Numbered from the stretch's first letter, positions 8,063 through 62,257 are shown. The stretch is DNA of 64,000 nt from a virus (IMGVR_UViG_3300014720_000016); one strand, 5' to 3'. Translations and numbers: made by a program. The notes: a model not told the origin generated them from the sequence alone.

Positions 8063-8095
8063 GGATCGGGGCAACCCGGCTTTAGGCCAGGCCCG
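8063..8095 (-). promoter_or_regulatory. CCTAAA-N13-GATCC intergenic element, copy 1
   Basis: + strand ggatc-ggggcaacccggc-tttaggccaggcccg. Confidence 0.75.
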
Positions 8096-8333
8096 TGCTG
8101 CCTGGTGCCTGTCGAAACTCAACCTCTGGACGCAGCCTCTCTACAAGGGCCTGCAAGTACTCTCTTTTCTTATCCATCATCAGCGCCTTGTTCAGGTGTG
8201 CGCGAACAGCCTCGATCTGCTCCGCAGAAGGGATCGGCTTGGCTGCCTTGCCCGTGCCCTGTGTCCAGCCATCTGGAGCTACTGCATTGGCAATGGTACG
8301 GAATTCTTTTTCGCTTAGTCCCAGGTAGTTCAT
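8082..8333 (-). CDS. hypothetical protein
   Basis: 83 aa; its stop codon is the TAA of the element's TAAA. Confidence 0.6.
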   Translation of the reverse strand: MNYLGLSEKEFRTIANAVAPDGWTQGTGKAAKPIPSAEQIEAVRAHLNKALMMDKKREYLQALVERLRPEVEFRQAPGSTGLA

Positions 8334-9202
8334 CGCTTATCCTTTCCAAGTTTCATTCGCGGAATCCTCTTCTGGAGGCCACCCTGGTAGCCAAAGAAGT
8401 AGCGGTACATTCGACGCTGGATAGCCATGCCAGCATGGCTAAGGCAGATGTCCGAAATCCGGCTGGCTACTGCGGGTGACTGCTCGGCAAGGGCAGCCTG
8501 AGACATGTAGAAGAGGACTCGAGGCGTAAGCATATCTCGAAATTCAGAGTCGAAATAGTTCTTGTTGTGTTCGCATCCGATATAGGGAATGACAGGATCG
8601 CTGTGCCAGAACTGGCCAAGATTTAGCAGGGATAGGCGAAGAGCCTCAAGAAACGCCACGTTTGCTAGGTCAACGGCGAGGACCGCTCCGCGCTTTGCTT
8701 TTTCAAGGTCAGCGCATACGACGGCTAGCAGATCAGGGATATTGCCTGAGTCAGAAACCGTGTCTGCTGCTGGTGGAACCACTCCGCACAGATAATCTTC
8801 CATGCTGGAGTTGCCTTCTTCGCCGCCATTGCCAGCGGAAGATTTTTCTACGATATCGGCGATATAGCGCGTTCGCTTGCGGGATGAATACTCGCGATTG
8901 AGATCATTCTTGAAGGAAATCTTCAGATAAGACTTGAATACTTTTAGAAAATCAATATCTGCGTCGGCGACTTCGACAAGCCCCTTGATAGTCTCGTCCG
9001 CTAGCTGCTTCGTATGGAGCACCCCGTCATCAAACTTCTTGGAGATAAAGAAAGCTTTGGCCTGCCATTCGTCTACGCACGCCCGCGCATCAGGCACCCG
9101 GTAGCCAAGGGCAATCTTGATCAGGGCTGGTCGGATAGATTCGAAGATGTTTGGAATCTCTTCCGCCAAGCGGATGCCGTTGTTCTTTGAGCTTACTGTC
9201 AT
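8330..9202 (-). CDS. putative sigma70-region-2-like transcription factor
   Basis: IRPALIKIALGY...DE...FKSYLKISFKNDLNREYSSRKR resembles ECF/sigma region 2.1-2.4; no clear region 4. Confidence 0.4.
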   Translation of the reverse strand: MTVSSKNNGIRLAEEIPNIFESIRPALIKIALGYRVPDARACVDEWQAKAFFISKKFDDGVLHTKQLADETIKGLVEVADADIDFLKVFKSYLKISFKNDLNREYSSRKRTRYIADIVEKSSAGNGGEEGNSSMEDYLCGVVPPAADTVSDSGNIPDLLAVVCADLEKAKRGAVLAVDLANVAFLEALRLSLLNLGQFWHSDPVIPYIGCEHNKNYFDSEFRDMLTPRVLFYMSQAALAEQSPAVASRISDICLSHAGMAIQRRMYRYFFGYQGGLQKRIPRMKLGKDKR

Positions 9203-9441
9203 TTTTCCTCATTCATTTTAACTGATTTCAGATAGAAGTTAATAATTCCTTCTTCTAGAAAGGCATCATCGGAGCCTCGAGTAATAGCGGATTTCCTGCT
9301 GGCGAGCGCAGACACCACTTCTTCATCAGAAGCAGCGAGCGCTACTAGCTCAGCTAGTGACTGCACTATGGCCGCACTCCTGAGCGCATGATTTTTGGCA
9401 AACCCGGCGTCAGCGGCAATAGTCTGTTTTAGTTCGCTCAC
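9199..9441 (-). CDS. hypothetical protein
   Basis: 80 aa, overlap-coupled. Confidence 0.6.
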   Translation of the reverse strand: MSELKQTIAADAGFAKNHALRSAAIVQSLAELVALAASDEEVVSALASRKSAITRGSDDAFLEEGIINFYLKSVKMNEEK

Positions 9442-9737
9442 ACCAAGCCGCCTTCCCGCAAATCATCCAGCACGCCGCTTACCTTTAACGCTGCGTCCGT
9501 TCCGCCATCTTCTATAACGCAGCCTTGCGCCTCCATCCAAAGGAAGGCATATTCTGCCGCCAGCAGCGCATCGGTAGTCGCCTGCAGTGTGTTTGCCAGT
9601 GACGCAATTAGCGAGGCTTGCTGGATATTACCGGATTGCAACGGCACCGAGCCGCCATTTGCATCTGTTATGCGAGCCTGGCTGCCATCAGATACAGCAT
9701 TCCACGGCAGTGGGTGATTTACGAAAATTCCCATCAT
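9438..9737 (-). CDS. hypothetical protein
   Basis: 99 aa with HPLPW motif. Confidence 0.6.
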
Positions 9738-9982
9738 TTTGCGTGCCGGTATACGATCCTACCCTTGGTAAGGTCGTAAGGGCTAACCTCTACGTCTACC
9801 GTATCTCCTAGGGTAATCATGATTGAGTTCTTGCGTAGCTTGCCGCCAGGATAAGCGGTGATACTAAATTGGCTATCCCCGTGCTTAACGTCAACGAAAA
9901 TGATCGAGTTGTTGACGTTTGTTACGGTTCCTGTTAGGCGTACTTTATCGCTATTGCTATTGTCCATTGATCTCTCTTTCAT
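9734..9982 (-). CDS. infA: translation initiation factor IF-1
   Basis: [33 protein letters not shown] is the IF-1 signature. Confidence 0.93.
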
Positions 9983-10335
9983 ACGAAAATCTTGTTATTT
10001 ACAAGCCTGGCAAAGCTAGCGGCTGTGATTGGTTCCGCGTTTTCTGCCAGACAAAAGCAGTCCATTTTATACGGGTTGTAGCTGACTTGCCGGCTAGCCG
10101 CGGGGGCGCTGCCGGTAACGGTACCCACTACAAAGGCGTGTACATTCTTCCTCTTCTCTGCCAACACCTTTAGCCGGCCCGCTTGGCGAACAACAAATTG
10201 GACATTTGCCAGCTCGATGCTCGCCACCAGGGCAATTACTAGCCCGGTTTTGCAGCACTGTACAGAGAAATTGCCGGTGTGCAGGTTTCTATAAACCCGA
10301 ACTCGGGTGCCAGGCTGTACGGGGTCAGTCGTCAT
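9979..10335 (-). CDS. conserved phage hypothetical protein
   Basis: [26 protein letters not shown]; start adjusted to MTTDP. Confidence 0.7.
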
Positions 10336-10672: not shown

Positions 10673-10683
10673 AATGAGGCCCT

Positions 10684-17442: not shown

Positions 17443-17475
17443 GGATCGGCGGGGGCCGGCCTTAGCCCCGGCCCG
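17443..17475 (-). promoter_or_regulatory. CCTAAA-N13-GATCC element, copy 2 (variant GCTAAG)
   Basis: ggatc-ggcgggggccggc-cttagccccggcccg. Confidence 0.7.
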
Positions 17476-17480
17476 TTCTG

Positions 17481-17720
17481 CTACTCTTCCTCTTCGCAGG
17501 TGCCACCGTCAATTGACGGTATCCAACGCCACCACTGAGTTTTATTACGAATGTCTACTTGCATGCCCATGCTGCCGCCGCCATCGAAAAGCTCTACGAC
17601 TTCTCCATCTATATGGCCGCAATCGGTGCGGAATATTTCGTTAACTCTTGGGCACTTTATTCTAATGCGCCTGCCTACTTGCAGTTCGGAGGGATCGATA
17701 GGACGCAGTGTTTTTCGCAT
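17481..17720 (-). CDS. small SH3-like hypothetical protein
   Basis: 79 aa, LQVGRRIRI. Confidence 0.6.
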   Translation of the reverse strand: MRKTLRPIDPSELQVGRRIRIKCPRVNEIFRTDCGHIDGEVVELFDGGGSMGMQVDIRNKTQWWRWIPSIDGGTCEEEE

Positions 17721-18126: not shown

Positions 18127-19590
18127 TCACTGAGCCGGAGCCCAAATAGTCTTGCGCTCAAGAAGATCTGGATATTCCGACTTTACCCAGCTCATAAAGC
18201 TTTTGATTTGCTTAGAAATAAAAATATCGACATTATTCAGATCGCTTACTGTTGTAGCCTTCTCTGCTTCCATGCCCGTTATCCGGGCTCGCACCGCATC
18301 AGCTGACGTCTTCTTAAGCGCCTCTACCCGCATATCGCAGATGATGCTTGCCTCGTAATCATCAAGACCGGCCAGGGCTTTTAGGTTGGCGTGGAAATCG
18401 CCTTCAGCCTTAAGCGCGGCAAATACCGCATCTAGATTGTCGCAAGCCTTTAGCTTGGCCCGCTCCCTCTTTAGTGCTTCATCCTGCTGCTTAATACTGG
18501 CGGTAAGAGTCGCGCAAACAATCCGACGACGGATGGCTACCCAGTCTCGGATTACGTCCGGTACGCCTACTGCCCGAGGAACGAGCGACTCCCCTTCCTC
18601 GTAAAGGCAGTTCATGCGGTAGCTAACCTTTTTGCGTAGAAGTTTGCGGATTTTTTCGTAAGCCGAGTCGTCCTTGTATTCAATGACGATCCGATCACCA
18701 TTCGCGCCAGAAGTCTCATTACGAGTGGCTTCGATTACTCCTTCATCCTGTAACTCTGCGCATTTGCTTAGGAAGCCTGATACGCTAAACTCTGGAGCAT
18801 AGCCAGTTACCAGCAGCAGCTTGCGATCACCCTTCTTCTCAAGGCGATGTGCACATTCATAAGTAAGCTGGCCGATGCCGGTTTTCAGCAGGGCTTCTAC
18901 ATCACTCTTGGAGCTAAGTAGATTGCAGCCGAAGCCGTCTGGCGCCCGAATATGCTTAGTAGCCTTGCCCTCATCTCCTTTTGCTAGATAATCAAGAACT
19001 GCTGCGGCAACCTCTAGGATATTAAATCCCGGAAACTTGCTGGTAATCGCCATGGCAATACCGGTGCTTGAGTTGAGCAGGAGCATCGGCAGCACGCTCG
19101 GCAGGTAACGCGGCTGATCCTTTGTATCGTCGTAATTCTTCTCGTATGGAACGCTTGCAAGATCCGGCAGATCGGTGATCATGCGTCGAGCCAGAGGATG
19201 TACCCGGCTCTCAGTATAACGAGCACTGGCCGCCTCTGTAGTTGCTCCGCCAAAGTTGCCCTGACCCTCGATAAGAGGGTGGCGCTCGTTGACCATGCCC
19301 ACTAGGGAGCCGTAGGCGGCAACCTCGCCGTGTGGTGAGTAGGAGGCGATACAGTGACCGGTAATCTTCGCGGACTTAATAAACTTCGCAGTATTCAGGT
19401 CAATGCAGCTCCAGAGCAGCAGGCGCTGGATTGGCTTTAGACCATCCTCTAGCCGGGGCAGAGCGCGGTTTTGGATTACCTCGTCGCCATAGTGCTTCAT
19501 GGCGCGCTTGACGAAGTCAACCGCTGATTGTCCCACTACCACCGACTGACTAGGGGCGGCTGCACGTTGTTCTTTTTTCTTTGTAGCCAT
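18127..19590 (-). CDS. type IIA DNA topoisomerase subunit A (GyrA/ParC-like, no CTD)
   Basis: RALPRLEDGLKPIQR, KSAKITG, PHGE, GQGNFG, catalytic AASARYTE; only 487 aa. Confidence 0.93.
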   Translation of the reverse strand: MATKKKEQRAAAPSQSVVVGQSAVDFVKRAMKHYGDEVIQNRALPRLEDGLKPIQRLLLWSCIDLNTAKFIKSAKITGHCIASYSPHGEVAAYGSLVGMVNERHPLIEGQGNFGGATTEAASARYTESRVHPLARRMITDLPDLASVPYEKNYDDTKDQPRYLPSVLPMLLLNSSTGIAMAITSKFPGFNILEVAAAVLDYLAKGDEGKATKHIRAPDGFGCNLLSSKSDVEALLKTGIGQLTYECAHRLEKKGDRKLLLVTGYAPEFSVSGFLSKCAELQDEGVIEATRNETSGANGDRIVIEYKDDSAYEKIRKLLRKKVSYRMNCLYEEGESLVPRAVGVPDVIRDWVAIRRRIVCATLTASIKQQDEALKRERAKLKACDNLDAVFAALKAEGDFHANLKALAGLDDYEASIICDMRVEALKKTSADAVRARITGMEAEKATTVSDLNNVDIFISKQIKSFMSWVKSEYPDLLERKTIWAPAQ

Positions 19591-19592
19591 TT

Positions 19593-21437
19593 TCAGATCC
19601 CCAGCAGTTCTTTGCGGCCCGCAATATCATCGCCCATGATTCTAAGGATTTCTTCTACGTCGGTCTTGCTCCAGTTCAGCTGGATAAGGCGGCGAGTGCT
19701 GCTCATTGCGTATTCTCCAACTTCATCAGGATTAGCTTCGCCGTGGCCCTTTAGTCTTGTCACGTCGCATTTGCTGAAGTGTTTGCCGGCCTTTGCCCGC
19801 ACATCGTCCATTGTATGTCCAAACCAGCGTTGCCGCGTACCTGGCAGCGAAGCCTTGAAAAGTGGCGCGTCTACGGAGTAGATCATTCCACGCTCAAGCA
19901 GTCCTGGCATATACTTGGCAAATAGTCCGATGATCAGACTACTGATATGATGACCGTCGTGATCAGAGTCAGATAGGATTATGAGCTTGCCTATGCGCAC
20001 ATCCCCGATATTAAACTTAGAGCCAAAGCCACCGCCTACGGATGCAACAATTGCGGCGATCTCGTCATTGGCGATTGCATCAGCCTCGGAAGCCTTGAAG
20101 ACGTTAAGGATCTTGCCCTTTAGGGGCAGGATTTCCTGGTAAGATGCGTCCCTGCCCTTAACGGCAGAACCGGCTGCGCTGTCGCCCTCCACTAAATAAA
20201 GCTCGCGGAGATATGGCTTGCAGTCCGCCTCGAATAACTTGTCAGGCAAAATGCCGCGGCTAGAACGCTTAGTGGTCTTAAGATCTTTGAGTGCGGCCTT
20301 TAGATCTTTCTGAGCCTGACGCTGCTCGTATGCGGTGACTGCATTAGCCAGAAAAGCATCAACAGTTGCGGCATTTTTCCGCGCCCAGCTCTTAAGCTGT
20401 GGGACCGCTGCATCAGCAATGCTCTTGCCCAGTCCCTTGTTAATCAGCTTCTCTTTTGTCTGTGAGGAAAACTGTGGGTTCGGGTGGGAGATGTGCAGGG
20501 CGTACTGCAAGTTTTCAGTGATTTCTTTGGCCGAGCACTTGTTTTTGCAGCGTTCGAGCAGGAAGTCTACTAGCGCGCTTTCCCAGCCCGATGCATGTTG
20601 ACCGCCATCGGCTGTACGACTAAGATTGACCAGAGAAACCGAACGACCTTCGTTGGCCCATTTCCAAGCCACTGAAACGCTTGCAGTCTTCTTTTCCCCG
20701 CCTACATCGACCTCTACATCAAAGGCAGTAGAGTAAGCGCTTTCGTCGCCAAGGATGCCGGCCACGCCCTTGCAAGGAAAATCTTCGAGCGTACCACCGT
20801 GCGATAGCGAGATCTTTGTTTTGGGCAACAGGTGTGCCGCATCAGTCAGGCGACCACGAACTTCAGCGAGATTAAAACCAGATACGTCCTTGAATACCTC
20901 TCGATAATCAGGGGTAAAGCGAACAAGCGTGCCGTGCTTTATTTTTGTCGGATTATCGCCTATTTTTGCATCACGGCCCAGCATCTTGCCGCGAGAGAAC
21001 TCTACCGATGCCATTTTTCGACCACGGTATGATTCTGCATAAAAGCTCTCAGACAGAGCGTTTGTGGCAGTAGAGCCTACACCGTGTGTGCCTACCGATG
21101 TACCATAGGTGTCGTTATCAAACTTGCCGCCCGACTTGGCTGTGCCAAATACGGTAGCAAGGGTGCTCAGGCCGGTCTTGGGATGCTTCTCGTGTGGGAT
21201 TCCGCGACCGTTATCAAACACCTCTGCGCTGCGGCAGTCATCAGAGATCTTTACTGAAATGCGATCAGCATGGCCACCTATGGCCTCATCGATGCCATTG
21301 TCGATGATTTCCTTTAAGATGATGAAATGCCCGGTGGCATTCGCACCCCCTACGTACAGGCCTGGCCGCAGTCGGATGTGTGCGATATCATCTAGGACCT
21401 GAATGGAATTTGAGTTGTACTCTTTGCTTTTAGCCAT
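19593..21437 (-). CDS. type IIA DNA topoisomerase subunit B (GyrB/ParE-like)
   Basis: HIRLRPGLYVG, EIIDNGIDE, DNGRGIP, GTHGVG, EGDSA, PLKGK, DSDHDG; start MAKSKEY. Confidence 0.95.
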   Translation of the reverse strand: MAKSKEYNSNSIQVLDDIAHIRLRPGLYVGGANATGHFIILKEIIDNGIDEAIGGHADRISVKISDDCRSAEVFDNGRGIPHEKHPKTGLSTLATVFGTAKSGGKFDNDTYGTSVGTHGVGSTATNALSESFYAESYRGRKMASVEFSRGKMLGRDAKIGDNPTKIKHGTLVRFTPDYREVFKDVSGFNLAEVRGRLTDAAHLLPKTKISLSHGGTLEDFPCKGVAGILGDESAYSTAFDVEVDVGGEKKTASVSVAWKWANEGRSVSLVNLSRTADGGQHASGWESALVDFLLERCKNKCSAKEITENLQYALHISHPNPQFSSQTKEKLINKGLGKSIADAAVPQLKSWARKNAATVDAFLANAVTAYEQRQAQKDLKAALKDLKTTKRSSRGILPDKLFEADCKPYLRELYLVEGDSAAGSAVKGRDASYQEILPLKGKILNVFKASEADAIANDEIAAIVASVGGGFGSKFNIGDVRIGKLIILSDSDHDGHHISSLIIGLFAKYMPGLLERGMIYSVDAPLFKASLPGTRQRWFGHTMDDVRAKAGKHFSKCDVTRLKGHGEANPDEVGEYAMSSTRRLIQLNWSKTDVEEILRIMGDDIAGRKELLGI

Positions 21438-21520
21438 TTTTGTTGTGCTCCGCATTGCTGTGTGCACAGGCTTTACACCGGGCAGCATTTAAGCCAGACG
21501 ACAGTGCAGATAATCCAGGC

Positions 21521-22342: not shown

Positions 22343-23268
22343 ATACGAATACCTAGCTTATCAAGATGGGGGATAAATCCGAGATTTTTGCCTTTGCATT
22401 CCATTTCGATGTCGCACTTTCCAGCGGCATAATAAGCCTTCTGGTAATCGGGGATCGTATGGATCGCCCAACTATGTGCTCGGCGCTCGGTAAAGTTGCC
22501 GCCTTCAAGGCCTGGCTCTGTGTTGCTAAGATGTTGTAGCGGAAGTATGCCAGCCGGCCAGGTAGAGGCCGCTGCAAGCATTGCCTCCTCGCCACTCATA
22601 CCGCCGTCATTGAATACATGATGATGAGAATCAAAAAGGATGGGTACCCCAGATGCTGCGCTAATTGGCATCAGGTCTGCTACTGACCAGCAGTTCTCAT
22701 CATTTTCGAGGGTCAAGCGTGATCGCACATTGTGTGGCAGAGCGTCAATGCCACGAAGTAGGCGATCTGGAGAGCCGCGTTTGCCGCCGTGAATATTTAT
22801 TGCAAAATTGGTACTAAGGGCAGCGCCAAGATTGTCCATAACCATGGCGTGATAAGTCAGTTCCCTGATAGAATTTTGTACTACGGTATCAGAATCGGAA
22901 TTAAGCACTACAAACTGGCCGGGATGCATAGTTAGGCGCAGGCCTGCGAAAGCAGATTGGGCTGATTGCAGAGCGGTGATTGCTTCGCCTACCAGTTCAC
23001 TGTAGCGCGCATCTTCTGCAACCTTATCGAACAGGGGCAGGAGCGTGCTGCCTACTCGAAACAGCCCCACTCCTGAATCCCGCAAGTCGCGCGTAATTGC
23101 AGAAATGCCAGCGATATTACCAAGCCAAACACTGCGAATATGCTCGGCGCTATACTCTCCGGCCTGGAATCGCCCTAGCTGCAAAGCTCGCTCGCCAATT
23201 TTGTTAACGAACTTTGAGCCAGTTTTAGTCTTCTTTTCTTCAAGCCACTGACAGCATACTCCGAGCAT
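22339..23268 (-). CDS. uvsE: UV damage endonuclease
   Basis: RLTMHPGQFVVLNS, INIHGG, RLTLENDE, FDSHHH, RAHS, DIEMECKGK. Confidence 0.93.
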   Translation of the reverse strand: MLGVCCQWLEEKKTKTGSKFVNKIGERALQLGRFQAGEYSAEHIRSVWLGNIAGISAITRDLRDSGVGLFRVGSTLLPLFDKVAEDARYSELVGEAITALQSAQSAFAGLRLTMHPGQFVVLNSDSDTVVQNSIRELTYHAMVMDNLGAALSTNFAINIHGGKRGSPDRLLRGIDALPHNVRSRLTLENDENCWSVADLMPISAASGVPILFDSHHHVFNDGGMSGEEAMLAAASTWPAGILPLQHLSNTEPGLEGGNFTERRAHSWAIHTIPDYQKAYYAAGKCDIEMECKGKNLGFIPHLDKLGIRI

Positions 23269-23577: not shown

Positions 23578-23578
23578 A

Positions 23579-23640
23579 AATCCTCCTAGTGCAGCTGCCT
23601 GCTGCTAGGAGGATTATATTCCCGAGTTTTTATCGGTAAA
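23579..23640 (-). promoter_or_regulatory. sigma70-like promoter overlapping an anti-SD hairpin for hsp20
   Basis: TTTACC-N16-TATAAT (23640-23613); AATCCTCCTAG/CTAGGAGGATT 11-bp inverted repeat that includes the SD. Confidence 0.65.
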
Positions 23641-23670
23641 GGAGCCCTGTAAAAAAAACTACAGGGCTCC
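23641..23670 (-). terminator. putative intrinsic terminator hairpin
   Basis: GGAGCCCTGTA-N8-TACAGGGCTCC followed by a short T run. Confidence 0.6.
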
Positions 23671-23677
23671 GCCGGCC

Positions 23678-25154: not shown

Positions 25155-25187
25155 GGATCGGCGGGGGCCGGCTTTAGGCCCGACCCG
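25155..25187 (-). promoter_or_regulatory. CCTAAA-N13-GATCC element, copy 3
   Basis: ggatc-ggcgggggccggc-tttaggcccgacccg. Confidence 0.8.
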
Positions 25188-25194
25188 TCCTGAC

Positions 25195-25665
25195 TTACTC
25201 TGATTCTTTAAATGCAAAATGTAGAGTATCGATTAGGCATTTGCCAGACGGCAAATTATCGCTATACTCCGCCCCTCGCGGGAGATAACGTAGGGTAGCG
25301 TGTGGTACGAAGTTGGGGAATTTATCATTAATTGAAATATCAAGGTTCGATAAAACTTCTTTGATCACCTCTCGCAGCTCGTGCAGGCGCGGGCTTTCAA
25401 TGTGAACGAACCAAGGCACGCTATCGTCTTTGCCTTTAAAACAGTCAAGTTCTCCGATTTCGGCTGAAAAAGGCTTCAGACGCTGAGCAATCATTTCAAT
25501 AGCCGCTGCTGCACGCAACACTTCGCCTTCCTCTAGGTCAGGCAAGTATATGACAGATACATGCGGAGGAGTAAAGTCGTCATTCCCAATACGGCCAAAG
25601 CGCGGAAAGGCCGCCTCTATCTCCGGCGGAAAGGTACAGTATACAAAGGCATCATACTTCTTCAT
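25195..25665 (-). CDS. 2H phosphoesterase (2'-5' RNA ligase/LigT superfamily)
   Basis: Two HxS/T motifs, PHVSV and PHATL; start MKKYDAF. Confidence 0.85.
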   Translation of the reverse strand: MKKYDAFVYCTFPPEIEAAFPRFGRIGNDDFTPPHVSVIYLPDLEEGEVLRAAAAIEMIAQRLKPFSAEIGELDCFKGKDDSVPWFVHIESPRLHELREVIKEVLSNLDISINDKFPNFVPHATLRYLPRGAEYSDNLPSGKCLIDTLHFAFKESE

Positions 25666-26620: not shown

Positions 26621-26653
26621 GGATCGGGCGGAGCCGGGTTTAGGCCCGGCCCG
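26621..26653 (-). promoter_or_regulatory. CCTAAA-N13-GATCC element, copy 4
   Basis: ggatc-gggcggagccggg-tttaggcccggcccg. Confidence 0.8.
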
Positions 26654-26664
26654 CCCTGGCACAT

Positions 26665-27409: not shown

Positions 27410-29542
27410 TCACACCTTGCTTTTGTTTACAAGAGACATGTAGTCGATAATATCTTTGCCAAGCGAGCCGCGATCAACCTGCCAAAGATTCATTAGCTTT
27501 AGCAGTGGGAATAGATTGCGGCAGGCTTCGTAGGTTTCTTCCGGTACATTAGAGGCGTGCTCCTTGCTTCCCAGACCAAGGTTTCGGCCCAACCTTGATC
27601 GACGCAGTGTAGCATAGGCAACTGCCTCGGTCTTGCCCTCGGTGCTCTCTGGATCAAAGAACATTGGAGTACCAGCCTTCTTTGCCCAGACCAGAACACG
27701 ACGGCGCTCATCACTGGCATTAATGCCATCGAAAAGAGCGGCTGCTTCGCCGAGCTTTTTTGCTGCCTCTTGGAGCTCTGTTGACAGCAGCCTGCAGCCA
27801 GCCTCCATAGCTTCCTTGATGTCAGATGTACGTACCGCCAGCAAGCGGGCATTCGCCGGAAGAACACCAGCAGTTACTAGAGACGTAAACTCGTTGGCGA
27901 TTGTCCGTGGCTCCATGTTCTCTACGAAATCCTTTGGTGCAAAACTCTCCATCGGGATAATAAGGTTAAGCTTGTTTTCTTCAAACTCTGCTGGCGTCCA
28001 GTTCTTGGACTTGGCAGAACGCTCGTGCGGCCCGCCAGAGGCAGTGAAGTAGATCGCAGCACGCTTGGCGGCATCTACTTTAGTGGGAGCCTTGCGGGGG
28101 CGAACGAGTGGTCGATCATCGTCCTCAGTAGCGTCAGGCATTGCCGGATCTGGCAGAGTACTAGCTAGAACCCAAAGATCTTCTGGCATGGTCTTGCTGA
28201 GCCATGACTTCGACTCCTCCACCTTCGTAGGAGCCGGCACCAGCATGGTAACGCCCGTCCGCAACTCCGCTGCTAGGTTTTTTGCACGGGCTACGCCAGT
28301 CGCCCGGTCTACGTCCAGTAGAACAATAGTATTCTGTACTGGAGAAATTTTTTCCTTGCCAAGTACATCAGCGGGACGTGCAGCATAGCGGCTGCCCGAA
28401 CGGTAAACCTCTACAACGGAGCTGAAGTAGAAGTCGTCAATTGTCGGACGGGTTTCCCACTCTTTGCCCTGCCACTTGATCTTGTCGCCAGTAACAACGC
28501 ACTCGATGCCATCATTAGAGATGTAGCCCAGCTCATGTGCCTTGCGAATAGCCTGGCGCAGATTTGTTTGAGCCAGTACCTCGGTCGTGACTTTTGCGGT
28601 AGCGCGATCCCTGATGCCAGTCAGCTTCTTGATGATTGCCTTAACCGTCGAGTCCTTGTACTCGAGGGCTTCGCGGCTGGCAGCCATCTGTAGCTCGCCG
28701 ATCTCAAAGTTCATAATAAGATTTGAGCAGCGCCATCGCAGCCAGTCACTGTCGGCTGCGTTGAGCCGATTAGCATTGCCCTTCGAGTCATAAGAGTCGT
28801 AGAGCAGCTTGCTGATGTCTACAGGGTATCCGACGTTGCCCATGATAGCAATAGGGTCATCAAGGCGATGCCTTGCGATCTTGACATCGTCCAGATCGAT
28901 GTGGATCTCGGGAATATCAAGGGCAACGGCAGCACCTAGGATGGTGGGCTTGACACGGAACCAGCGGTAGAGATTGCGCGCACGATTGTGGAAGTCATGC
29001 ACATCGCTTGAATCGACCGGGATAACAATCTCGATGCCGGTTTCGGTGGTTGGCTCGCGAGAAAGCTCGCTTACCTCACCCAGACCGCTTTCGTCAAGGA
29101 AGATGCTATAGCAAGTCTTGGTACCGTTACAGTGCGAGTTGATCTGCCAGAAATCCGTGTAGGCAAACGCAGACTTGCTGCCGAAACCCATCTGGCCGTT
29201 GAATGCATTTGAATTACGCTTCGTAGAAGCGCCATACATGCAGTACACTTCGCGAATGCCATCCTCATCCAGGCCGCGACCAAAGTCACGGACTCGGAAG
29301 AATAGATCGCTGTGATTGGGGAGGGTGATCTGGATGGGGGTATCTGGGATGCCGGCATCAATATGGGCATCGCAGGCATTCGTGGCGTACTCGCGGCAAA
29401 CGGCCAATACCTTGTCCGAGTATAGCTTGCTGCGAAGTACTGAGAAGATGTGCACCATATCTGATGCAGTCTTAATACCAAACTTCGATGACTTGAAATC
29501 ACCGTTGCGCTCTACATCAAAACCGATCTCATCTTGCTTCAT
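27410..29542 (-). CDS. rIIA: rIIA-like protein (GHKL ATPase N-domain)
   Basis: LYSDKVLAVCREYATNACDAH, RDFGRGL, YGASTKRNSN...GFGSKSAFAYTD, SREALEY. Confidence 0.9.
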   Translation of the reverse strand: MKQDEIGFDVERNGDFKSSKFGIKTASDMVHIFSVLRSKLYSDKVLAVCREYATNACDAHIDAGIPDTPIQITLPNHSDLFFRVRDFGRGLDEDGIREVYCMYGASTKRNSNAFNGQMGFGSKSAFAYTDFWQINSHCNGTKTCYSIFLDESGLGEVSELSREPTTETGIEIVIPVDSSDVHDFHNRARNLYRWFRVKPTILGAAVALDIPEIHIDLDDVKIARHRLDDPIAIMGNVGYPVDISKLLYDSYDSKGNANRLNAADSDWLRWRCSNLIMNFEIGELQMAASREALEYKDSTVKAIIKKLTGIRDRATAKVTTEVLAQTNLRQAIRKAHELGYISNDGIECVVTGDKIKWQGKEWETRPTIDDFYFSSVVEVYRSGSRYAARPADVLGKEKISPVQNTIVLLDVDRATGVARAKNLAAELRTGVTMLVPAPTKVEESKSWLSKTMPEDLWVLASTLPDPAMPDATEDDDRPLVRPRKAPTKVDAAKRAAIYFTASGGPHERSAKSKNWTPAEFEENKLNLIIPMESFAPKDFVENMEPRTIANEFTSLVTAGVLPANARLLAVRTSDIKEAMEAGCRLLSTELQEAAKKLGEAAALFDGINASDERRRVLVWAKKAGTPMFFDPESTEGKTEAVAYATLRRSRLGRNLGLGSKEHASNVPEETYEACRNLFPLLKLMNLWQVDRGSLGKDIIDYMSLVNKSKV

Positions 29543-30668: not shown

Positions 30669-31328
30669 ATGGAATTCAATCTGTTTAAGATTGCCAAAAA
30701 AGAGCTGGAGTGTCCTCAGTGCGGGGTGACATTTGTCCCTCGGCATTCAGCCGTGTGGAAGTTGAAAAATGGCTTGACCAAGAAGCTGTTCTGTTCGCGC
30801 GCCTGCCGAGTAAAGAACTACCAGCGGCGCATTACAATGCCGTGTAAGATCTGCGGCAAGTCGGTTACTCGCTTGCTTTCGGAACACCGCAAGTCAAAAA
30901 GCGGGAATATATTCTGCTCTCCAGAATGTGGTACGATTTGGTCTAACTACATGGGAAAGAAGTTCCATACTCGCTCTGCACTAGAAGTTGCTGTCGAGGA
31001 GCAGCTACATCAGGACTTCCCAGATCTAGAAGTCATTTGCGGCTCTAACTCTGCAATCGGCGCTGAGCTGGATATCTACTTCCCAAGCAAGAAGATTGCT
31101 ATTGAAATTCATGGCGCCTATCACTACTACCCTGTTCGGGGTGACTGGGCCAAGTTCATGAAAACGCTGCGGAATGATGCCCGCAAGCTGCGAATGGCTA
31201 AAGACGCTGGCATCAAGCTATATGTGCTTAATGCCAGCAAGCTGCGTGGCAAGCGTGCCTTTAGCAGCTATTATAAGCAGATAGCCGATCTAGTAAGAAA
31301 GGCCATCCTAGAGAGCGACTCTAAATAA
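30669..31328 (+). CDS. zinc-finger + Vsr/DUF559-like endonuclease (homing-endonuclease-like)
   Basis: CPQC, FCSRAC, CKIC, FCSPEC, then ELDIYFPSKKIAIEIHGAYHY. Confidence 0.75.
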   Translation: MEFNLFKIAKKELECPQCGVTFVPRHSAVWKLKNGLTKKLFCSRACRVKNYQRRITMPCKICGKSVTRLLSEHRKSKSGNIFCSPECGTIWSNYMGKKFHTRSALEVAVEEQLHQDFPDLEVICGSNSAIGAELDIYFPSKKIAIEIHGAYHYYPVRGDWAKFMKTLRNDARKLRMAKDAGIKLYVLNASKLRGKRAFSSYYKQIADLVRKAILESDSK

Positions 31329-32354: not shown

Positions 32355-32387
32355 AATAAAAAGCGGGCCGCTACGGTAGCGGCCCGC
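32355..32387 (-). terminator. intrinsic terminator
   Basis: Perfect 11-bp stem GCGGGCCGCTA/TAGCGGCCCGC plus TTTTT on the - strand. Confidence 0.8.
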
Positions 32388-32394
32388 CGCGCCG

Positions 32395-32678: not shown

Positions 32679-32711
32679 GGATCGGGCGGCGCCGGGTTTA
32701 GGCCCGGCCCG
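32679..32711 (-). promoter_or_regulatory. CCTAAA-N13-GATCC element, copy 5
   Basis: ggatc-gggcggcgccggg-tttaggcccggcccg. Confidence 0.8.
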
Positions 32712-32714
32712 TCC

Positions 32715-34043
32715 TCACTCGAAATCAGAAAGCTTGTGTACATGCGAATCGGCAGGGATACCATAATCCCTAGAGCCGCCCGCTGTCAGGAACCAGTGCC
32801 AGCGTTTTGGCTTTTCTGGATGCACATCGTTGCCATAGCCGTCACTCAACACCCATACCGCGTGCGGGTAAGCGGAGTCTTTCTCGGCCATCTCTGCCTG
32901 AATACGTCGCTCGATAATGCTAAAGCTGGTTCCTCCTCCCCCGTAAACTTTTGCAGTTTTTAGATCTGTCTCATATACGCGGGTATCAAAGCAGTACAGC
33001 TTGACATCAAACCGGCGTGGGTCAAGTGTGCGTGCAGCCTTGAAAAACCGCTCTGCATAGCTAATGCAGCTGCCACTTGTATCAAGAAAGAATGAAACTC
33101 TAATCCGCTTTTTCTCGTCGCCCTCGCTCTCGCCGAGCGCAGGTAGCATACAATCGCCCATCATTGACGGATCAATTCGGCGGCTCTGCTGTGTCCAAAC
33201 AGGGGCTTCTGCAAACTCATCTGCGGCACGCAGTGCCCATTTCTTGACTACGCTTTCCCAACGGGGTTTAGGTCGAATCCATTTCGCAGATGCAATCTCG
33301 AGAACCGTATCACCCGGATGCTTACCAGCACGCAGCCCCTTGGCTGCGGCAGCTGCACTCTTCTCCATCTCTGGAGTTGCGTCAGATCCGGCCATTTCAG
33401 CCAGTTCTTCCGTATTGCCAGAGTCAAGTGTGCGCTTAAGCATGTCGGCCAGATCACCCCCGCCGAATCCTGCGAGATCCCTGTGATCATCTACGGTTTG
33501 TGGCCTGCCACCTCCTTCGCCAGATTCCCGGTTAGGGCTAGCCTTGTTCTTTAGCTTTGCCTCGGGATTTTTACTCAGCAGAGCGTTGGCATAATATTCA
33601 AAACTTTTACCAGCTGGCTCGCCAGGCAGGACTTCATCTAGCCAGATATACCGCACGCCATCTGGCTCAACCTCGTCACGACGAAAACCATAGTGGCTTT
33701 CAAGATGCGAGTTGACCGCAATATCCATCGCAGCATTCAGTGTGCCTGGATCTACAGTCTTAAGCAGCTCAGTAGAGCGAATGCCGTGACTAAAGATGAC
33801 GTGCATACACTCGTGGGCAATGGCAAAAAGCTTGCCCTTTTCTGACAGGGTGCCCCAGAAATCTGGATTGACTGACCACATGATCTGCTGTCCGGCCTTG
33901 TCAAAGGCTACGGCGCACGTCGGGATCTCCCGCGTTACAGTCGGCTTTCCCATCGACCAGAATTTAGAAAAAACCGAGTGGTAGTCCTCTAGCTGTTTTG
34001 CTAGACTCGACCACTCGTCATCTGATAGGCACTCAGTCGACAT
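32715..34043 (-). CDS. DUF2201-type metallopeptidase-like + VWA domain protein
   Basis: AHECMH (HExxH), NAAMDIAVN, DTSGS MIDAS, GGGGTSF, LSDG. Confidence 0.85.
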   Translation of the reverse strand: MSTECLSDDEWSSLAKQLEDYHSVFSKFWSMGKPTVTREIPTCAVAFDKAGQQIMWSVNPDFWGTLSEKGKLFAIAHECMHVIFSHGIRSTELLKTVDPGTLNAAMDIAVNSHLESHYGFRRDEVEPDGVRYIWLDEVLPGEPAGKSFEYYANALLSKNPEAKLKNKASPNRESGEGGGRPQTVDDHRDLAGFGGGDLADMLKRTLDSGNTEELAEMAGSDATPEMEKSAAAAAKGLRAGKHPGDTVLEIASAKWIRPKPRWESVVKKWALRAADEFAEAPVWTQQSRRIDPSMMGDCMLPALGESEGDEKKRIRVSFFLDTSGSCISYAERFFKAARTLDPRRFDVKLYCFDTRVYETDLKTAKVYGGGGTSFSIIERRIQAEMAEKDSAYPHAVWVLSDGYGNDVHPEKPKRWHWFLTAGGSRDYGIPADSHVHKLSDFE

Positions 34044-35361: not shown

Positions 35362-35394
35362 GGATCGGGCGGGACCGGGTTTAGGCCCGACCCG
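35362..35394 (-). promoter_or_regulatory. CCTAAA-N13-GATCC element, copy 6
   Basis: ggatc-gggcgggaccggg-tttaggcccgacccg. Confidence 0.8.
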
Positions 35395-35396
35395 GC

Positions 35397-35897
35397 CTAG
35401 CGGGCGAGAGCAGGCAGAATAAAGTCCGTATTAAATTGACCAAATGAACCCGTGCAGATCTGCTCAGGCTTTACCCATTTTACGAGTGCGCCTTCAGAAT
35501 TGACATGATCCCGTACGTCTCCAAAGATCTCAGCGCGGTAGATAAAAACTTTGATGGTGCCTACGTCAGCAATCCCAACTAGGAAAGGGTTGCATAACGT
35601 AGCACCTGTTTCCTCTACAGCCTCACGACATGCGGCTGTCAGCGGTGTCTCGCCCGCTTCGATCTTGCCGCCTGGCAAACCTAGATCAGAGTGATCATCC
35701 TTCCTGCTAACCGCTAGGATCAAGCCATCCTGCTCTACGATAATAACAGAAGCACTGCCGTCAGGAAAAGAGCTGTTGTAATTTTGCTTTTTTCTCATTC
35801 CGCTGGCTTTCATTGGTGGCAGAGCTGACCAGATTAATTGCTCGCTAGCAGCTCGCTGCTTCAGCTTTGTTGTGCTTACACTGTCACAATTGATCAT
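35397..35897 (-). CDS. NUDIX hydrolase
   Basis: GLPGGKIEAGETPLTAACREAVEETG Nudix box. Confidence 0.9.
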   Translation of the reverse strand: MINCDSVSTTKLKQRAASEQLIWSALPPMKASGMRKKQNYNSSFPDGSASVIIVEQDGLILAVSRKDDHSDLGLPGGKIEAGETPLTAACREAVEETGATLCNPFLVGIADVGTIKVFIYRAEIFGDVRDHVNSEGALVKWVKPEQICTGSFGQFNTDFILPALAR

Positions 35898-39379: not shown

Positions 39380-39412
39380 GGATCGGGCGGGGCCGGGTTT
39401 AGGCCGGCCCCG
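39380..39412 (-). promoter_or_regulatory. CCTAAA-N13-GATCC element, copy 7
   Basis: ggatc-gggcggggccggg-tttaggccggccccg; perfect 12-bp stem. Confidence 0.8.
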
Positions 39413-39422
39413 CCCTGCGACT

Positions 39423-41894: not shown

Positions 41895-41927
41895 GGATCG
41901 GCGGGGGCCGGGTTTAGGCCCGGCCCG
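41895..41927 (-). promoter_or_regulatory. CCTAAA-N13-GATCC element, copy 8
   Basis: ggatc-ggcgggggccggg-tttaggcccggcccg. Confidence 0.8.
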
Positions 41928-41932
41928 TGATG

Positions 41933-43123
41933 TTAGTCGCAATTTCCTGCGAATCTAGAGGTAAGACTGTTTACCATTTGCTCTGGACGAACGGAGAGGT
42001 CGTCAAGCCATCCGTTGCAACCAGCAGCTATATTTGCAAAAGAGTTATGGAAATGGCGTAGCGTGTAAACACCGACTGTATAATCGTTTTCTTCACAGCT
42101 CTCAATCAGGCGAGGGGTGTCACTAGGCGCATACACTTGGTAATACTCGTCAGTAAAGATTATGACTGCTCTTTCCTCCGTTAGCCAGCTCTCTTCTTCC
42201 AGGAATCTAAGCGTGGCATTCGCTGCGTACTCCAAACCTCCCGCATGATAGGTAAGACCCAGCATGTCTGCGCAGGCATCAGTGGCTGAAGAAAATGGAG
42301 AGATCATGAGGTACTCCTCCCTTCTGCCAGAAATACCAAAGGCCGCTACGCCAAATATATCCTGCGGTCTAGAAAGTGACCAGTTACAGAGGGCGGTTTC
42401 TACACTGTCGATGTATACGTCCATTGACCCGCTGTAGTCAATAACAAGCAAAAACGAGCGGGGTTCAGAGTCATCGCTGGCTTCATCCACAAGCCCATCG
42501 CAATCATCGTCAAGCCTGTTACCACACTCCTCATCCCGAGGGGTAATCATACCCTCGTATACTTGGATGCCGTCTACACATCGAGCTACGCCAGCACGGC
42601 AGATGCCTACATTGACGGTTGAAATATCGCCATCATATACAAATGGCGGAACCGTTAAAGTCATGCTCGGATCCATGCCATTTACCAGCCCATCGCAGTC
42701 CTCGTCCTCGAACTGGGCATCACATATCTCTGGCCTGGAAAAGCCTGGGTCGCATACTAGCTCGCCATCAATGCAGATGGTATTTGCATTCTTGCATGCG
42801 CCTTGTTCCGTATAGCGGCAGCGATTTCTTGAATCGCCCGGATGAATAACTATATTCGCCTCTGTTGTCGAGGGGTCGCAGTCGTCGTCCTCGAAGAAAC
42901 CGCATATCTCTTGTGTTGTTGGCGGGATGTAGTCCGGGCAAGAGGGAACGCCGTCAGCATCACATACTGATACCGATGGCCTACATGTAGCTGCAAGCGC
43001 CTCCTCGTTCAGCAGAAGCTCTCTTAGACGCACGGCACATGGCACACCGCACTTGTTTTCTGGAACCAGGATCTCATCAGAGCAGGCGGAAACCAGCAGA
43101 CACAACAGCAATAAATTGCGCAT
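41933..43123 (-). CDS. Cys-rich lipoprotein with E.C...DDDCDG..DE repeats and C-terminal VWA domain
   Basis: MRNLLLLCLLVSAC lipobox; EIC..EDDDCD, EICD..DEDCDGLVN, EECGNRLDDDCDGLVDE; DYSGSM and IFTDE. Confidence 0.8.
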   Translation of the reverse strand: MRNLLLLCLLVSACSDEILVPENKCGVPCAVRLRELLLNEEALAATCRPSVSVCDADGVPSCPDYIPPTTQEICGFFEDDDCDPSTTEANIVIHPGDSRNRCRYTEQGACKNANTICIDGELVCDPGFSRPEICDAQFEDEDCDGLVNGMDPSMTLTVPPFVYDGDISTVNVGICRAGVARCVDGIQVYEGMITPRDEECGNRLDDDCDGLVDEASDDSEPRSFLLVIDYSGSMDVYIDSVETALCNWSLSRPQDIFGVAAFGISGRREEYLMISPFSSATDACADMLGLTYHAGGLEYAANATLRFLEEESWLTEERAVIIFTDEYYQVYAPSDTPRLIESCEENDYTVGVYTLRHFHNSFANIAAGCNGWLDDLSVRPEQMVNSLTSRFAGNCD

Positions 43124-48530: not shown

Positions 48531-48563
48531 GGATCGGGCGGGACCGGGTTTAGGCCCGGCCCG
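48531..48563 (-). promoter_or_regulatory. CCTAAA-N13-GATCC element, copy 9
   Basis: ggatc-gggcgggaccggg-tttaggcccggcccg. Confidence 0.8.
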
Positions 48564-48625
48564 TCCTGCTATTCGCCTATCCTAGCGCGGGAGCCGAGCT
48601 CGCAGCCGTGAACCTAGGATAGCAC

Positions 48626-51103: not shown

Positions 51104-51193
51104 GTGAAGAAACCTTGAAAAAAGAGGTCTACGAAAAAAAGCGTCGGGGGTATAACTAGCGCAGCCGACGCCGCCGAGGGGGAGAACTACCTT

Positions 51194-51226
51194 TATATAC
51201 GGGTATATACAGGTATATACGGGTAT
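51194..51226. repeat. 10-bp tandem repeat (TATATACRGG)x3.3
   Basis: tatatacggg tatatacagg tatatacggg tat, intergenic. Confidence 0.85.
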
Positions 51227-53095: not shown

Positions 53096-53128
53096 GGATC
53101 GCCCCCGCCCGGCTTTAGGCCCGCCTCG
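53096..53128 (-). promoter_or_regulatory. CCTAAA-N13-GATCC element, copy 10 (divergent spacer)
   Basis: ggatc-gcccccgcccggc-tttaggcccgcctcg; spacing kept, hairpin lost. Confidence 0.75.
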
Positions 53129-53135
53129 GCTAGCA

Positions 53136-53348
53136 TTACTTGATAGCAGTAAAATCCCAGTTATATGCAAAATCTTTAACAAAGCCTATTTTAACTAATC
53201 TGGCTTCTAGCTCAGTCAGTCTATTCCCGGCAGTATCAGGCTTTAACCACAACGTAATTTTTGGGCGTTCCTCGTAAGAGGTGGCAGATAGACCAGAGTT
53301 TATCCTGACGACATCCTCTGCGCAAACAGGGAAAGAAATCTGAGACAA
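53136..53348 (-). CDS. hypothetical protein
   Basis: 70 aa ORF. Confidence 0.5.
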   Translation of the reverse strand: MSQISFPVCAEDVVRINSGLSATSYEERPKITLWLKPDTAGNRLTELEARLVKIGFVKDFAYNWDFTAIK

Positions 53349-56434: not shown

Positions 56435-56467
56435 GGATCGGGGCGGCCCGGCCCGCTCTGGCATTCT
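56435..56467 (-). promoter_or_regulatory. degenerate copy of the GATCC element (no TAAA half)
   Basis: ggatc-ggggcggcccggc-ccgctc, intergenic, same orientation. Confidence 0.5.
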
Positions 56468-58031: not shown

Positions 58032-58042
58032 AAGATCAGTAC

Positions 58043-58579: not shown

Positions 58580-58584
58580 CGGGA

Positions 58585-58845: not shown

Positions 58846-58878
58846 TATTTGCCTGCATCATTACAGCAGGCTAGATCG

Positions 58879-59813: not shown

Positions 59814-59930
59814 GTATCACCTTGGTTTTCGCACGGATTCTGCCATGGTAGCCATGGCTATCGCAATAATCCAAAAAGGAGCACTGAGGATAAAAGCAGC
59901 AAAGATAATAGCTATTTCCAAGTACTTTTC

Positions 59931-60853: not shown

Positions 60854-60854
60854 A

Positions 60855-61883
60855 CTACTCTCCTATCTTCAACAGGAACGCATTGTTAATTACCTTGAAG
60901 GAAGCCCTGGCTAATCCGGTTCCCAAGTAGCTCGCGATAACAGCGGAGTTGCGCTCTCGCGTAGGTCGGATAACAATACCCTCTCGTGGATGCCCGCTAT
61001 CATAGTTGCCCTCGGCAGCCGCTAAGGCTGTCTCAAGCGTAATATCAAGCTGCCTGACCCAAAGGATAGGTACTGTTGGAATTGAATAGCGGCTGCAAAA
61101 TTCTTGGAAATCTTCGAAGTCAAGGTACGCTTGCCCAGAGATGTCAAACACCTGGAAAGCATAAAATGCCTTGCCACGAATACCCAGACGGTTCCCCTGG
61201 ATGCTCTCGCCAACAAATTCTCCTTGGACGGCAAACCCGGCAGGCATATTTTCAAATATACCCAGCTGACGAGCCATGGTCCAGTGAGGAGATCCTTCAA
61301 TGTCTTTTAGTGCATAATTACGGGTGCAGACAAATTGCGTCTCGCCCTCGGCGTCACGATGCTTTGCAAAGGTAAGGGACTGGCCATCTAGCTTGACAGC
61401 TGCATAGCACTCTACGCCACGCAACTCGTCTAGTACCTCGGGTACTGATTGCAAGCGAATCTCATCTGTTTTGTTAAACAGGTGAGTGGGAAAATTGCCG
61501 GCAATTTCGCGAGCCCCGCTGGTAGATGCAGGCTCCCACTTTGTTACGCCAAGCTGGGCAGTGACATCGCTGCCTTCCGCAATAGGGCAGGACTCAGGAA
61601 GAACTGATACCGGCAGGGCTAGGCCCTGCGAAAGTACCCCTCGCATACGCTTGCTGCGCAGCCTAAAATTATCAGGTCGCTTGCCATCTGGCCACAAGAA
61701 AGAAAAGATGCTCCTATCAGGCAGGACGGAATCAATCTCGAAGTAAACGCAACAGTCGCCTGCCTGGAACTCTCCCTTGCGAGATACGAGCTGCCATCCA
61801 AGAACCTGGATCTTTTCGACCCTGTCTGCGCCAGGGATCGGGGATACTGATATTACCTTCTGGATGCTTGCCAGCTTGCGCAT
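60855..61883 (-). CDS. RNA ligase (DRB0094/Rnl2-like)
   Basis: MRKLASIQ, PIPGADR, YFEIDS, SQGL, KTDE, KLDG, QGE, REGIV, SFKVINN. Confidence 0.9.
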   Translation of the reverse strand: MRKLASIQKVISVSPIPGADRVEKIQVLGWQLVSRKGEFQAGDCCVYFEIDSVLPDRSIFSFLWPDGKRPDNFRLRSKRMRGVLSQGLALPVSVLPESCPIAEGSDVTAQLGVTKWEPASTSGAREIAGNFPTHLFNKTDEIRLQSVPEVLDELRGVECYAAVKLDGQSLTFAKHRDAEGETQFVCTRNYALKDIEGSPHWTMARQLGIFENMPAGFAVQGEFVGESIQGNRLGIRGKAFYAFQVFDISGQAYLDFEDFQEFCSRYSIPTVPILWVRQLDITLETALAAAEGNYDSGHPREGIVIRPTRERNSAVIASYLGTGLARASFKVINNAFLLKIGE

Positions 61884-61884
61884 G

Positions 61885-62106
61885 TCAGCCCTCCCCCTTG
61901 CCGTCCTCCGCGGCAGCGGCCTCAGCATCTTTTTCTTCAATATACTTGTGGAGAGAATCTGATACAAACCGCGAAAGGACATCAGGAGTGATTTCCGTCA
62001 CTCCATAAAAAAACTTAATATGTTCAGCTGCTTCATCATCATAATTGATGTCAGCTTTTAGGGAGCCGTCCGGCATTTCTTTAAGAGAAAGGATCTCGAT
62101 CTTCAT
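61885..62106 (-). CDS. hypothetical protein
   Basis: Start MKIEIL...EMPDGS. Confidence 0.6.
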   Translation of the reverse strand: MKIEILSLKEMPDGSLKADINYDDEAAEHIKFFYGVTEITPDVLSRFVSDSLHKYIEEKDAEAAAAEDGKGEG

Positions 62107-62224
62107 ATTTTTACCTTCATCCCGCCTCGCAATCCGAAACGGGCTCTGTCTGGAAGTATTTTGCGGGCGCATAGCACGCGGAGTGCTGTATCTTACTGCT
62201 TTTCTGCCCGCCTTCGCCACTAAG

Positions 62225-62257
62225 GGATCAGGCGGGACCGGGTTTAGGCCCGACCCG
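62225..62257 (-). promoter_or_regulatory. CCTAAA-N13-GATCC element, copy 11
   Basis: ggatc-aggcgggaccggg-tttaggcccgacccg. Confidence 0.8.

Follow-up and report, generated by a model that had tools for sequence, protein, structure and literature searches.

We analysed a stretch of 64,000 nucleotides of viral DNA (IMGVR_UViG_3300014720_000016; hereafter the window). It covers the early or auxiliary part of the genome of a freshwater jumbo phage that is uncultured and related to T4. A short element, CCTAAA-N13-GATCC, recurs along this window. We interpret the element as a promoter specific to the phage lineage, which would be used by the host RNA polymerase together with a sigma-like factor. Judging from the architecture of the element and from comparison between genomes, we assign this interpretation a probability of about 0.6. 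A bipartite promoter had been suggested in an earlier description made from the sequence alone (the sequence-only reading), and it is the best supported explanation. Relatives of the phage carry copies without a hairpin that have the same two blocks at the same spacing and stand after stem-loops or terminators and 18–60 nt before a Shine-Dalgarno (SD) sequence and ATG. The element as a whole occupies a single arm of a genome whose genes are almost all co-oriented. The further suggestion that a cruciform assists the promoter does not hold as a requirement, because 30 copies in the relative G001 and some orthologous copies of the window have no hairpin.

The pattern CCTAAA-N13-GATCC has ten exact matches in the window, all on the − (coding) strand, versus 0.04 expected by chance. 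Using a weight matrix built from all copies and a cut-off of 14 bits, we obtained 11 sites with scores of 22–38 bits, including a variant at 17443. The next best site on the − strand scored 1.6 bits, and the + strand of the window had no match above 14 bits. The 11 co-oriented copies described earlier were thus all recovered, as ten exact copies and one variant. The variant is recognised by the matrix, but it is hardly a full copy, as both of its mismatches lie in the CCTAAA block. Two sites that had been proposed as degenerate copies, at 254 and 56435, scored −8.5 and −30 bits, respectively, and neither counts as a copy. All 11 copies are intergenic, with a stop codon 11–32 nt upstream in ten of them and 71 nt upstream in one, and with the next plausible start codon 8–174 nt downstream. 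The placement at gene boundaries and in one orientation had been described correctly, except that the distance to the start codon extends to 174 nt rather than to about 120 nt.

The consensus of the sequence-only reading was correct and could be extended to CAGG..CGGGcCGGG-CCTAAA-cCCGG..CCCGATCC in the window, where the base following GATCC varies among copies. All window copies belong to a hairpin class, in which a GC-rich spacer is complementary to the upstream flank, so that the loop contains CCTAAA and the foot of the stem GATCC. The hairpins were as reported, with a perfect 12-bp stem at 39380 and with a copy at 53096 that keeps the blocks and loses the stem; the copy at 8063 likewise has no stem spanning CCTAAA. 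The distance between the two blocks is indeed invariant. It is 13 nt in 10/10 exact window copies and in 65/65 sense copies of G001, with no copies at 12 or 14 nt, and it is also kept in the 17443 variant. Across copies the sequence of the spacer ranges from AT-rich to GC-rich. A rigid gap combined with a free spacer sequence points to one rigid protein that reads both blocks.

Searches of the GenBank phages with megablast and tblastn revealed no close isolate relatives, with best protein identities of ~27–34%. A pattern scan of IMG/VR with the motif yielded G001, a complete relative of 371,675 bp. The window is collinear with positions 58–131 kb of G001 at 64–80% nucleotide identity. Ten of the 11 window copies are found at orthologous junctions in G001, where the proteins are 50–70% identical. 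These orthologous pairs agree in the core but not in the flanks, whose identity is no better than random, a pattern indicative of purifying selection on a function. Copies without a partner at the same junction of the other genome are 62225 in the window and at least 69427 in G001.

With at most one mismatch allowed, G001 has 81 forward versus 3 reverse matches. The copies are confined to an arm of ~145 kb, running from 350.8 kb across the contig end to 123 kb, that contains small genes and genes of nucleotide metabolism; among the genes of this early arm are small open reading frames (ORFs), rIIA, topoisomerase II, helicase and RNA ligase. The remaining 227 kb are free of the motif and encode a DNA polymerase, an SbcC-like nuclease, a head protease and a tail-fibre-like giant protein. 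As almost the whole genome of G001 is coded on the + strand, the confinement to one arm implies that the element marks a region or temporal class, and not mere gene orientation. The motif-free arm (125–350 kb) has an intergenic word of its own, CTATTAA(T), which is ~8-fold enriched and often stands right after a hairpin with a T-run (for example at 170,790, 175,860, 194,030, 208,575, 235,800 and 238,470). This word may be a separate, perhaps late, promoter element, with a faint likeness to the T4 late TATAAATA.

Multiple copies of the motif were also found in 46 metagenome loci, in each of which all copies or all but one lie on one strand. Scans of 185,579 bacterial and archaeal genomes with two motif patterns gave 0 matches and 13 scattered singletons, never multiple copies, and named no host. 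Since only scattered singletons occur, the motif is not a multi-copy element of the host. A search based on a GroEL-like gene gave a single match that was uninformative with respect to the host. A literature search with the motif words returned nothing relevant, and Rfam gave no match on the window or on the array region of G001. Two other lines of evidence were discarded. A coding-strand majority test agreed in only 38 of 56 metagenome loci, but spurious antisense ORFs in high-GC regions make it unreliable. The depletion of antisense TTTAGG is genome-wide and explained by codon and stop content.

A further indication of promoter function comes from a second class of copies. In G001, 30 copies between 350.8 and 363.7 kb have an AT-rich spacer (e.g. 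CCTAAAAACATTATCTTTTGATCCTG) and no hairpin; their mean minimum free energy of −6.5 kcal/mol equals that of a control with swapped arms. Of these copies, 24 head small genes that follow each other every 250–600 bp (350.8–361 kb). A GC stem-loop is present 15–40 nt upstream in 23 of these 24 cassettes, and in 11–12 of them it has a T-run, as canonical terminators do. In the cassettes the motif is followed by GGAGG and ATG within 18–60 nt (median 46 nt). Overall, the median distance from the motif to SD and ATG is 36–46 nt. No other conserved sequence was found in the stretch from stem-loop to SD. These units are predicted promoter–gene–terminator cassettes, in which the motif is the only promoter candidate. 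The consensus common to both classes is CCGGnCCTAAA ... (C/T)GATCC(TG), with the TG following in G001. The cassette region (350–361 kb) has a G+C content of 64%, compared to ~50% in the rest of the genome, and holds ~24 small genes, each with a motif and an upstream stem-loop.

Next to the cassettes, the region 361,600–363,750 of G001 (L106:100–2250; also L029:1600–3720) carries 13 motif copies at a spacing of 59–310 bp and is almost without ORFs, with ORF-less dense arrays at 361.6–362.4 and 363.3–363.7 kb. About 12 nt after several of the array copies a second repeated box, CAACGGGACAACCGGGGGCGGG, is found (4 copies), together with T-runs. In appearance, the array region is either a series of short non-coding units of transcription or a control region of the iteron type. 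A single copy in reverse orientation, which converges on a short array unit, is kept in G001 and in five relative loci (L062, L071, L077, L094 and L100).

The hairpin was investigated in a set of 200 distinct copies of the hairpin class, drawn from the window, G001 and the 46 metagenome loci. At least 8 pairs span CCTAAA in 83% of these copies. The native arms folded with −17.35 kcal/mol, compared to −15.75±0.18 kcal/mol when arms were swapped between copies (z = −8.8). Moreover, in the orthologous pairs 35362/96221 and 26621/106181 both arms have changed and the pairing is preserved. Individual copies thus preserve their stem, but the common signal does not depend on it, since the hairpin-free class and two window copies do without it. 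Column-pair mutual information gave no fixed-register covariation, and its top pairs reflect subfamilies instead of base pairs. The sense strand has no excess of G-U pairs. The antisense strand folds slightly better and with more G-U pairs, so that the structure is not assignable to RNA or DNA. None of the window copies resembles an intrinsic terminator, as their stems are followed by GATCC and GC-rich sequence and never by a T-run. Genuine terminators with a T-run do exist at other places in the window, for example at 32388–32362.

If the element is a promoter, it would represent a transcription class specific to the lineage that drives the 'early arm'. The signal would be read on double-stranded DNA, as CCGGnCCTAAA, a rigid 13-bp spacer and (C/T)GATCC. 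The SD sequence can be as near as 8 nt past GATCC. This bounds the transcription start, which would fall inside GATCC or no further than ~8 nt downstream of it. The likely reader would be the host core RNA polymerase with a non-housekeeping factor, either a sigma-like or an appropriating one, that is encoded by the phage (and possibly delivered with the virion) or is an alternative sigma of the host; the host core enzyme is the most likely reader because no phage RNA polymerase was detectable. Each promoter would be coupled to a GC-rich stem-loop closing the preceding unit, which is separate (15–40 nt upstream) or fused with the promoter. In RNA that reads through from the gene upstream, a fused hairpin would serve as a 3' end, a pause site or an attenuator. 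We only tentatively suggest a more far-reaching version, in which a divergent phage sigma, encoded at 8330–9202 or delivered with the virion, redirects the host RNA polymerase to this short rigid promoter. The ~45-nt element would then double as the 3'-end hairpin of the preceding unit, and more than 140 kb of early genes would be transcribed without the housekeeping sigma. This would be a transcription system not known so far, and we regard it as possible, though doubtful.

Several observations weigh against a promoter. The upstream stop codon stands at a tight distance of 11–20 nt, the distance to the start codon is variable and all window copies are of the hairpin class, such that the window by itself fits a 3'-end element equally well. 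Neither of the two blocks resembles a melting element. In most window copies GATCC(n) offers no T at −7, and the window spacers are GC-rich. No candidate for the recognising factor is tied to the motif, and the sigma-like candidates are weak. Furthermore, if the factor is encoded by the phage, it would have to be delivered with the DNA for transcription of the first genes.

Alternative ways to accommodate the element in known promoter types were less successful. A housekeeping −10 is not present, as TAnnnT is lacking and the base after GATCC varies in the window. An extended −10 (TGnTA after GATCC) is absent from the window copies and would place the transcription start inside or beyond the SD in copies with a short leader. 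Reading TTGATC as a −35 leaves no room for a −10 before the SD. We do not favour CCTAAA as a −10 like that of T4 late promoters, because this would leave the rigid 13-nt link to GATCC without explanation and because the late arm is marked by a different word, CTATTAA. Judged by sequence, the motif fits none of the known consensus sequences of sigma factors. There is no enrichment of sigma70-type promoters in G001 (35 on the + strand versus 28 on the − strand), and their 25 matches in the window at 20–40 kb, compared to 16.4±4.3 expected, were taken as chance level. The sole perfect TTGACA-17-TATAAT of G001, at 138,951–138,979, lies just 5' of a gene for a protein of 582 amino acids (139,026–140,774); its N-terminus, judged by eye, is chaperonin (GroEL)-like.

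Which protein reads the signal was addressed mainly in G001. The phage RNA polymerase considered in the sequence-only reading found no support, as neither a T7-like nor a multisubunit (beta-like) RNA polymerase was detected in G001, where scans for PF00562 and for the DxDGD signature (D[FY]D[GI]D) were negative. Two giant ORFs of G001, at 178,711–186,807 (2698 amino acids) and 272,837–279,007 (2056 amino acids), have no Pfam or PHROG match; they matched no RNA polymerase family and no informative family. The first of these sits directly after the gene of a sigma-like protein of 262 amino acids. This protein (177957–178745) is full-length, its match is weak, and it is encoded in the motif-free arm. 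In G001 proteins of 191 amino acids (22499–23074) and 130 amino acids (205986–206378) only a sigma region 4 domain was detected. The PF00940 search of G001 was negative as well, but is weak evidence because it was also empty in controls. MotA_activ had no match in G001.

The window itself encodes a candidate divergent sigma-like protein of 290 amino acids (8330..9202, − strand), which had been singled out earlier as the possible factor. It is an ORFan restricted to the phage lineage, where it is found in 13 clusters. No sequence match was obtained in Pfam, PHROG or PDB, and the result was equally empty when all 13 homologues were scanned with Pfam and when PDB sequences were searched with a profile. 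Its AlphaFold (AF2) model had a pLDDT of 66, and a Foldseek search of PDB with this model returned nothing. In a search of PDB-representative folds without Foldseek, residues ~5–115 matched region 2 domains of extracytoplasmic function (ECF) sigma factors in 11 of the 21 top rows, with a best Z of 6.5, which falls below the reliability that the search tool states for helical folds. A language-model search placed the protein next to a cluster named 'sigma-70 family' (0.95). A sigma region 4 was not matched, and the C-terminal half gave no informative match. The protein may be a phage sigma, but with a Z of this size it is a lead only, and no test links it to the motif.

Other functions of the element were weighed against the same observations. 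It might act as RNA, with the CCUAAA-loop hairpin and its GAUCC foot serving as a processing, stabilising or factor-dependent termination site on long polycistronic transcripts that is bound by a phage RNA-binding protein, in the manner of the T7 early-gene RNase III sites. The position of the window copies, close to stop codons and 8–174 nt from starts, would suit such a site, and so would the frequent pairing (at least 8 pairs in 83% of 200 copies), the advantage of native over swapped arms (z = −8.8) and the arm changes of orthologues that keep the pairing. Yet, the 30 hairpin-free copies of G001 retain the blocks and the exact spacing, and many of them stand 3' of canonical terminators and would rarely be transcribed from upstream. 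The window copies 8063 and 53096 have no stem either, and stems of 8–12 bp are short for RNase III. The slightly better folding of the antisense strand, with more G-U pairs, gives no sign of selection on the sense RNA, and fixed-register covariation and an Rfam match are both lacking. We therefore consider an RNA element unlikely.

It seems similarly improbable that the element is a DNA site for a phage regulator or genome-organising protein, such as an operator, a roadblock or a partition- or iteron-like site, with the real promoters being weak and unrecognised. Strict co-orientation with genes and a narrow distance to SD and ATG over ~80 copies suit a promoter and not a nucleoid or partition site, even though rigid blocks with a free spacer agree with protein binding, the ORF-less arrays beside the second repeated box look iteron-like, and G001 encodes the helix-turn-helix proteins of 191 and 130 amino acids with sigma region 4 only. 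An operator would normally overlap a recognisable promoter, but the cassettes contain no alternative promoter consensus between stem-loop and SD. By far the least probable is that the repeats mark the boundaries of mobile or recombinogenic cassettes and persist by shuffling gene modules, independently of expression. Dozens of near-identical repeats of ~45 bp among small ORFan genes are reminiscent of such boundaries, as are the partnerless copies at 62225 and G001 69427 and the decayed copy at 56435. However, window and G001 are collinear with 10/11 copies at orthologous, conserved junctions, the core is conserved between randomised flanks, and the share of genes without a homologue is no higher beside the copies (4/11) than overall (~38%), as counted in one genome pair with ~60% protein identity. 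A recombination site between gene modules, as mentioned in the sequence-only reading, is therefore not favoured, and shuffling could be a side effect of the element.

The nearest known system to the proposed promoter is that of the PeSL and PmSL cassettes of T4-type phages, in which a stem-loop and a promoter form a composite unit (Arbiol et al. 2010, PMC2839356; Comeau et al. 2014, PMC4122927). Both systems consist of dozens of conserved, co-oriented intergenic cassettes of stem-loop and promoter followed by SD and start codon in T4-related genomes, and both cluster among small early ORFs and seldom occur in structural modules. The stem-loop lies just upstream of the motif in 23/24 hairpin-free cassettes of G001, and overlaps the upstream block in the window copies. 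The promoter part of PeSLs is sigma70-like (variants of TTGACA-N17-TATAAT) or a Mot box with a −10 (PMC4122927). In contrast, our element has neither TTGACA/TATAAT hexamers nor a Mot box with a −10; as a promoter it would be of a different kind. Moreover, stem-loop and proposed promoter are merged in the window copies, whose loop contains CCTAAA, whereas the PeSL stem-loop stands upstream. PeSLs flank indels (PMC2839356, PMC4122927), and module shuffling was proposed as their evolutionary role, whereas the copies described here are mostly at conserved junctions.

Other systems share single features with the element. T4 middle promoters combine a MotA box at −30 with a sigma70 −10, and depend on sigma appropriation by AsiA/MotA. 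Like these, the element is bipartite, belongs to early-region genes and has an upstream block that takes the place of the −35, at ~12–13 bp from the downstream block. Unlike the Mot box and −10 layout of T4 middle promoters (PMC4122927), however, it has no TGCTT box and no TAnnnT −10, and a MotA activation domain was not found in G001 (AsiA was not searched). The resemblance to sigma28 that had been pointed out earlier lies in TAAA upstream and (G)CCGAT downstream, which many hairpin-class copies have. The sigma28 (FliA) promoter is TAAA-N15-GCCGATAA. In the element, TAAA and GCCGAT are invariantly 10 nt apart, 5 nt shorter than in sigma28 promoters, where a distance of 15 (±1) to GCCGATAA is expected, and hairpin-free copies carry TTTTGATCC instead of GCCGAT; identity with sigma28 promoters thus fails on spacing.

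Early promoters of phage N4, which are used by its virion RNA polymerase, are hairpin promoters with stems of 5–7 bp, present in 3 copies. They share with the element a hairpin with conserved sequence 5' of early genes. Here, however, the hairpin is dispensable (30 copies lack it), the stems are 8–12 bp long, there are ~80 copies, and no giant or T7-like polymerase was recognised. Processing sites for RNase III in the early region of phage T7 are likewise co-oriented hairpins at gene boundaries. The stems of the element are too short for such sites, its hairpin-free copies carry the same signal, and its conserved part consists of two blocks at fixed spacing and not of a helix.

If confirmed as a promoter, the element would define an early regulon of ~80 transcription units per genome in a widespread lineage of uncultured freshwater jumbo phages, and would give a simple sequence marker by which operons and temporal classes could be annotated in phage genomes from metagenomes. 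It would also point to a specificity factor of bacterial RNA polymerase with a geometry outside the described sigma classes. The fusion of hairpin and promoter would extend the PeSL idea beyond sigma70, and could offer a compact orthogonal promoter/insulator part if the factor is found.

The individual copies, all on the − strand of the window, are as follows. Copy 1 (8063..8103; 29.3 bits) consists of a core at 8063–8086 and the upstream GC arm, and is orthologous to G001 123237. Copy 2 (17443..17483; 22.3 bits; G001 115475) has GCTAAG in place of CCTAAA and keeps the spacing and CGATCC. The highest-scoring example is of the hairpin class, copy 3 (25155..25195; 38.4 bits; G001 107665). Copy 4 (26621..26661; G001 106181), also of the hairpin class, folds with −28.0 kcal/mol. 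Copy 5 (32679..32719; G001 99581) heads a unit consisting of an ORF of 61 amino acids (32395–32580) and a canonical intrinsic terminator (32362..32388, − strand) with a 12-bp stem and TTTTATT. Copy 6 (35362..35402; G001 96221), with compensatory arm changes, lies 33 nt 5' of an AAA-ATPase gene (34054–35328). In copy 7 (39380..39420; −30.8 kcal/mol; G001 92207) the perfect stem encloses a CCTAAAC loop. Copy 8 (41895..41935; G001 89731) has an 8-bp stem, whereas that of copy 9 (48531..48571; G001 83741) is extended by pairing of GGA with the TCC of GATCC. The stem of copy 10 (53096..53136; G001 79336) is essentially lost, being interrupted and folding with −13.0 kcal/mol, and the blocks and spacing are kept. 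Copy 11 (62225..62265) is a TGATCC variant with ATCAG/CTGAT at the base of its stem, and the same junction of G001 has no copy. The decayed copy (56435..56458, − strand) is a remnant, CGGGCCGGGCC..CCCCGATCC, without the TAAA part, and the orthologous junction of G001 has an intact copy at 72581. Site 254 is merely a GC-rich low-complexity tract that ends in CGATCC. This tract (200–330, − strand), which is GC-only and of the CGCGCCCG type, lies 5' of a gene start, and its position is conserved in G001 at 130,880–130,925.

Nearly all genes of the window are on the − strand. Recognisable among them are a helicase (4547–6118), both subunits of topoisomerase II (18127–21488), rIIA (27410–29542) and an RNA ligase (60855–61982), as well as an FtsK-like ATPase, a DHH phosphoesterase and a glycosyltransferase. 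A gene for an HNH homing endonuclease (30669–31328) lies on the + strand, where it breaks the co-oriented block; terminator-like hairpins flank it on both sides, and it has no motif of its own. The non-coding gap at 51104–51225 (− strand) has no motif copy and contains three tandem repeats of CC(C/T)GTATATA(C/A), followed by a hairpin with a T-run. The gap at 23578–23677 (− strand) holds an 11-bp hairpin, TTT and then TTTACC-16-TATAAT, a rare good candidate for a sigma70-type promoter in a layout of stem-loop plus promoter.

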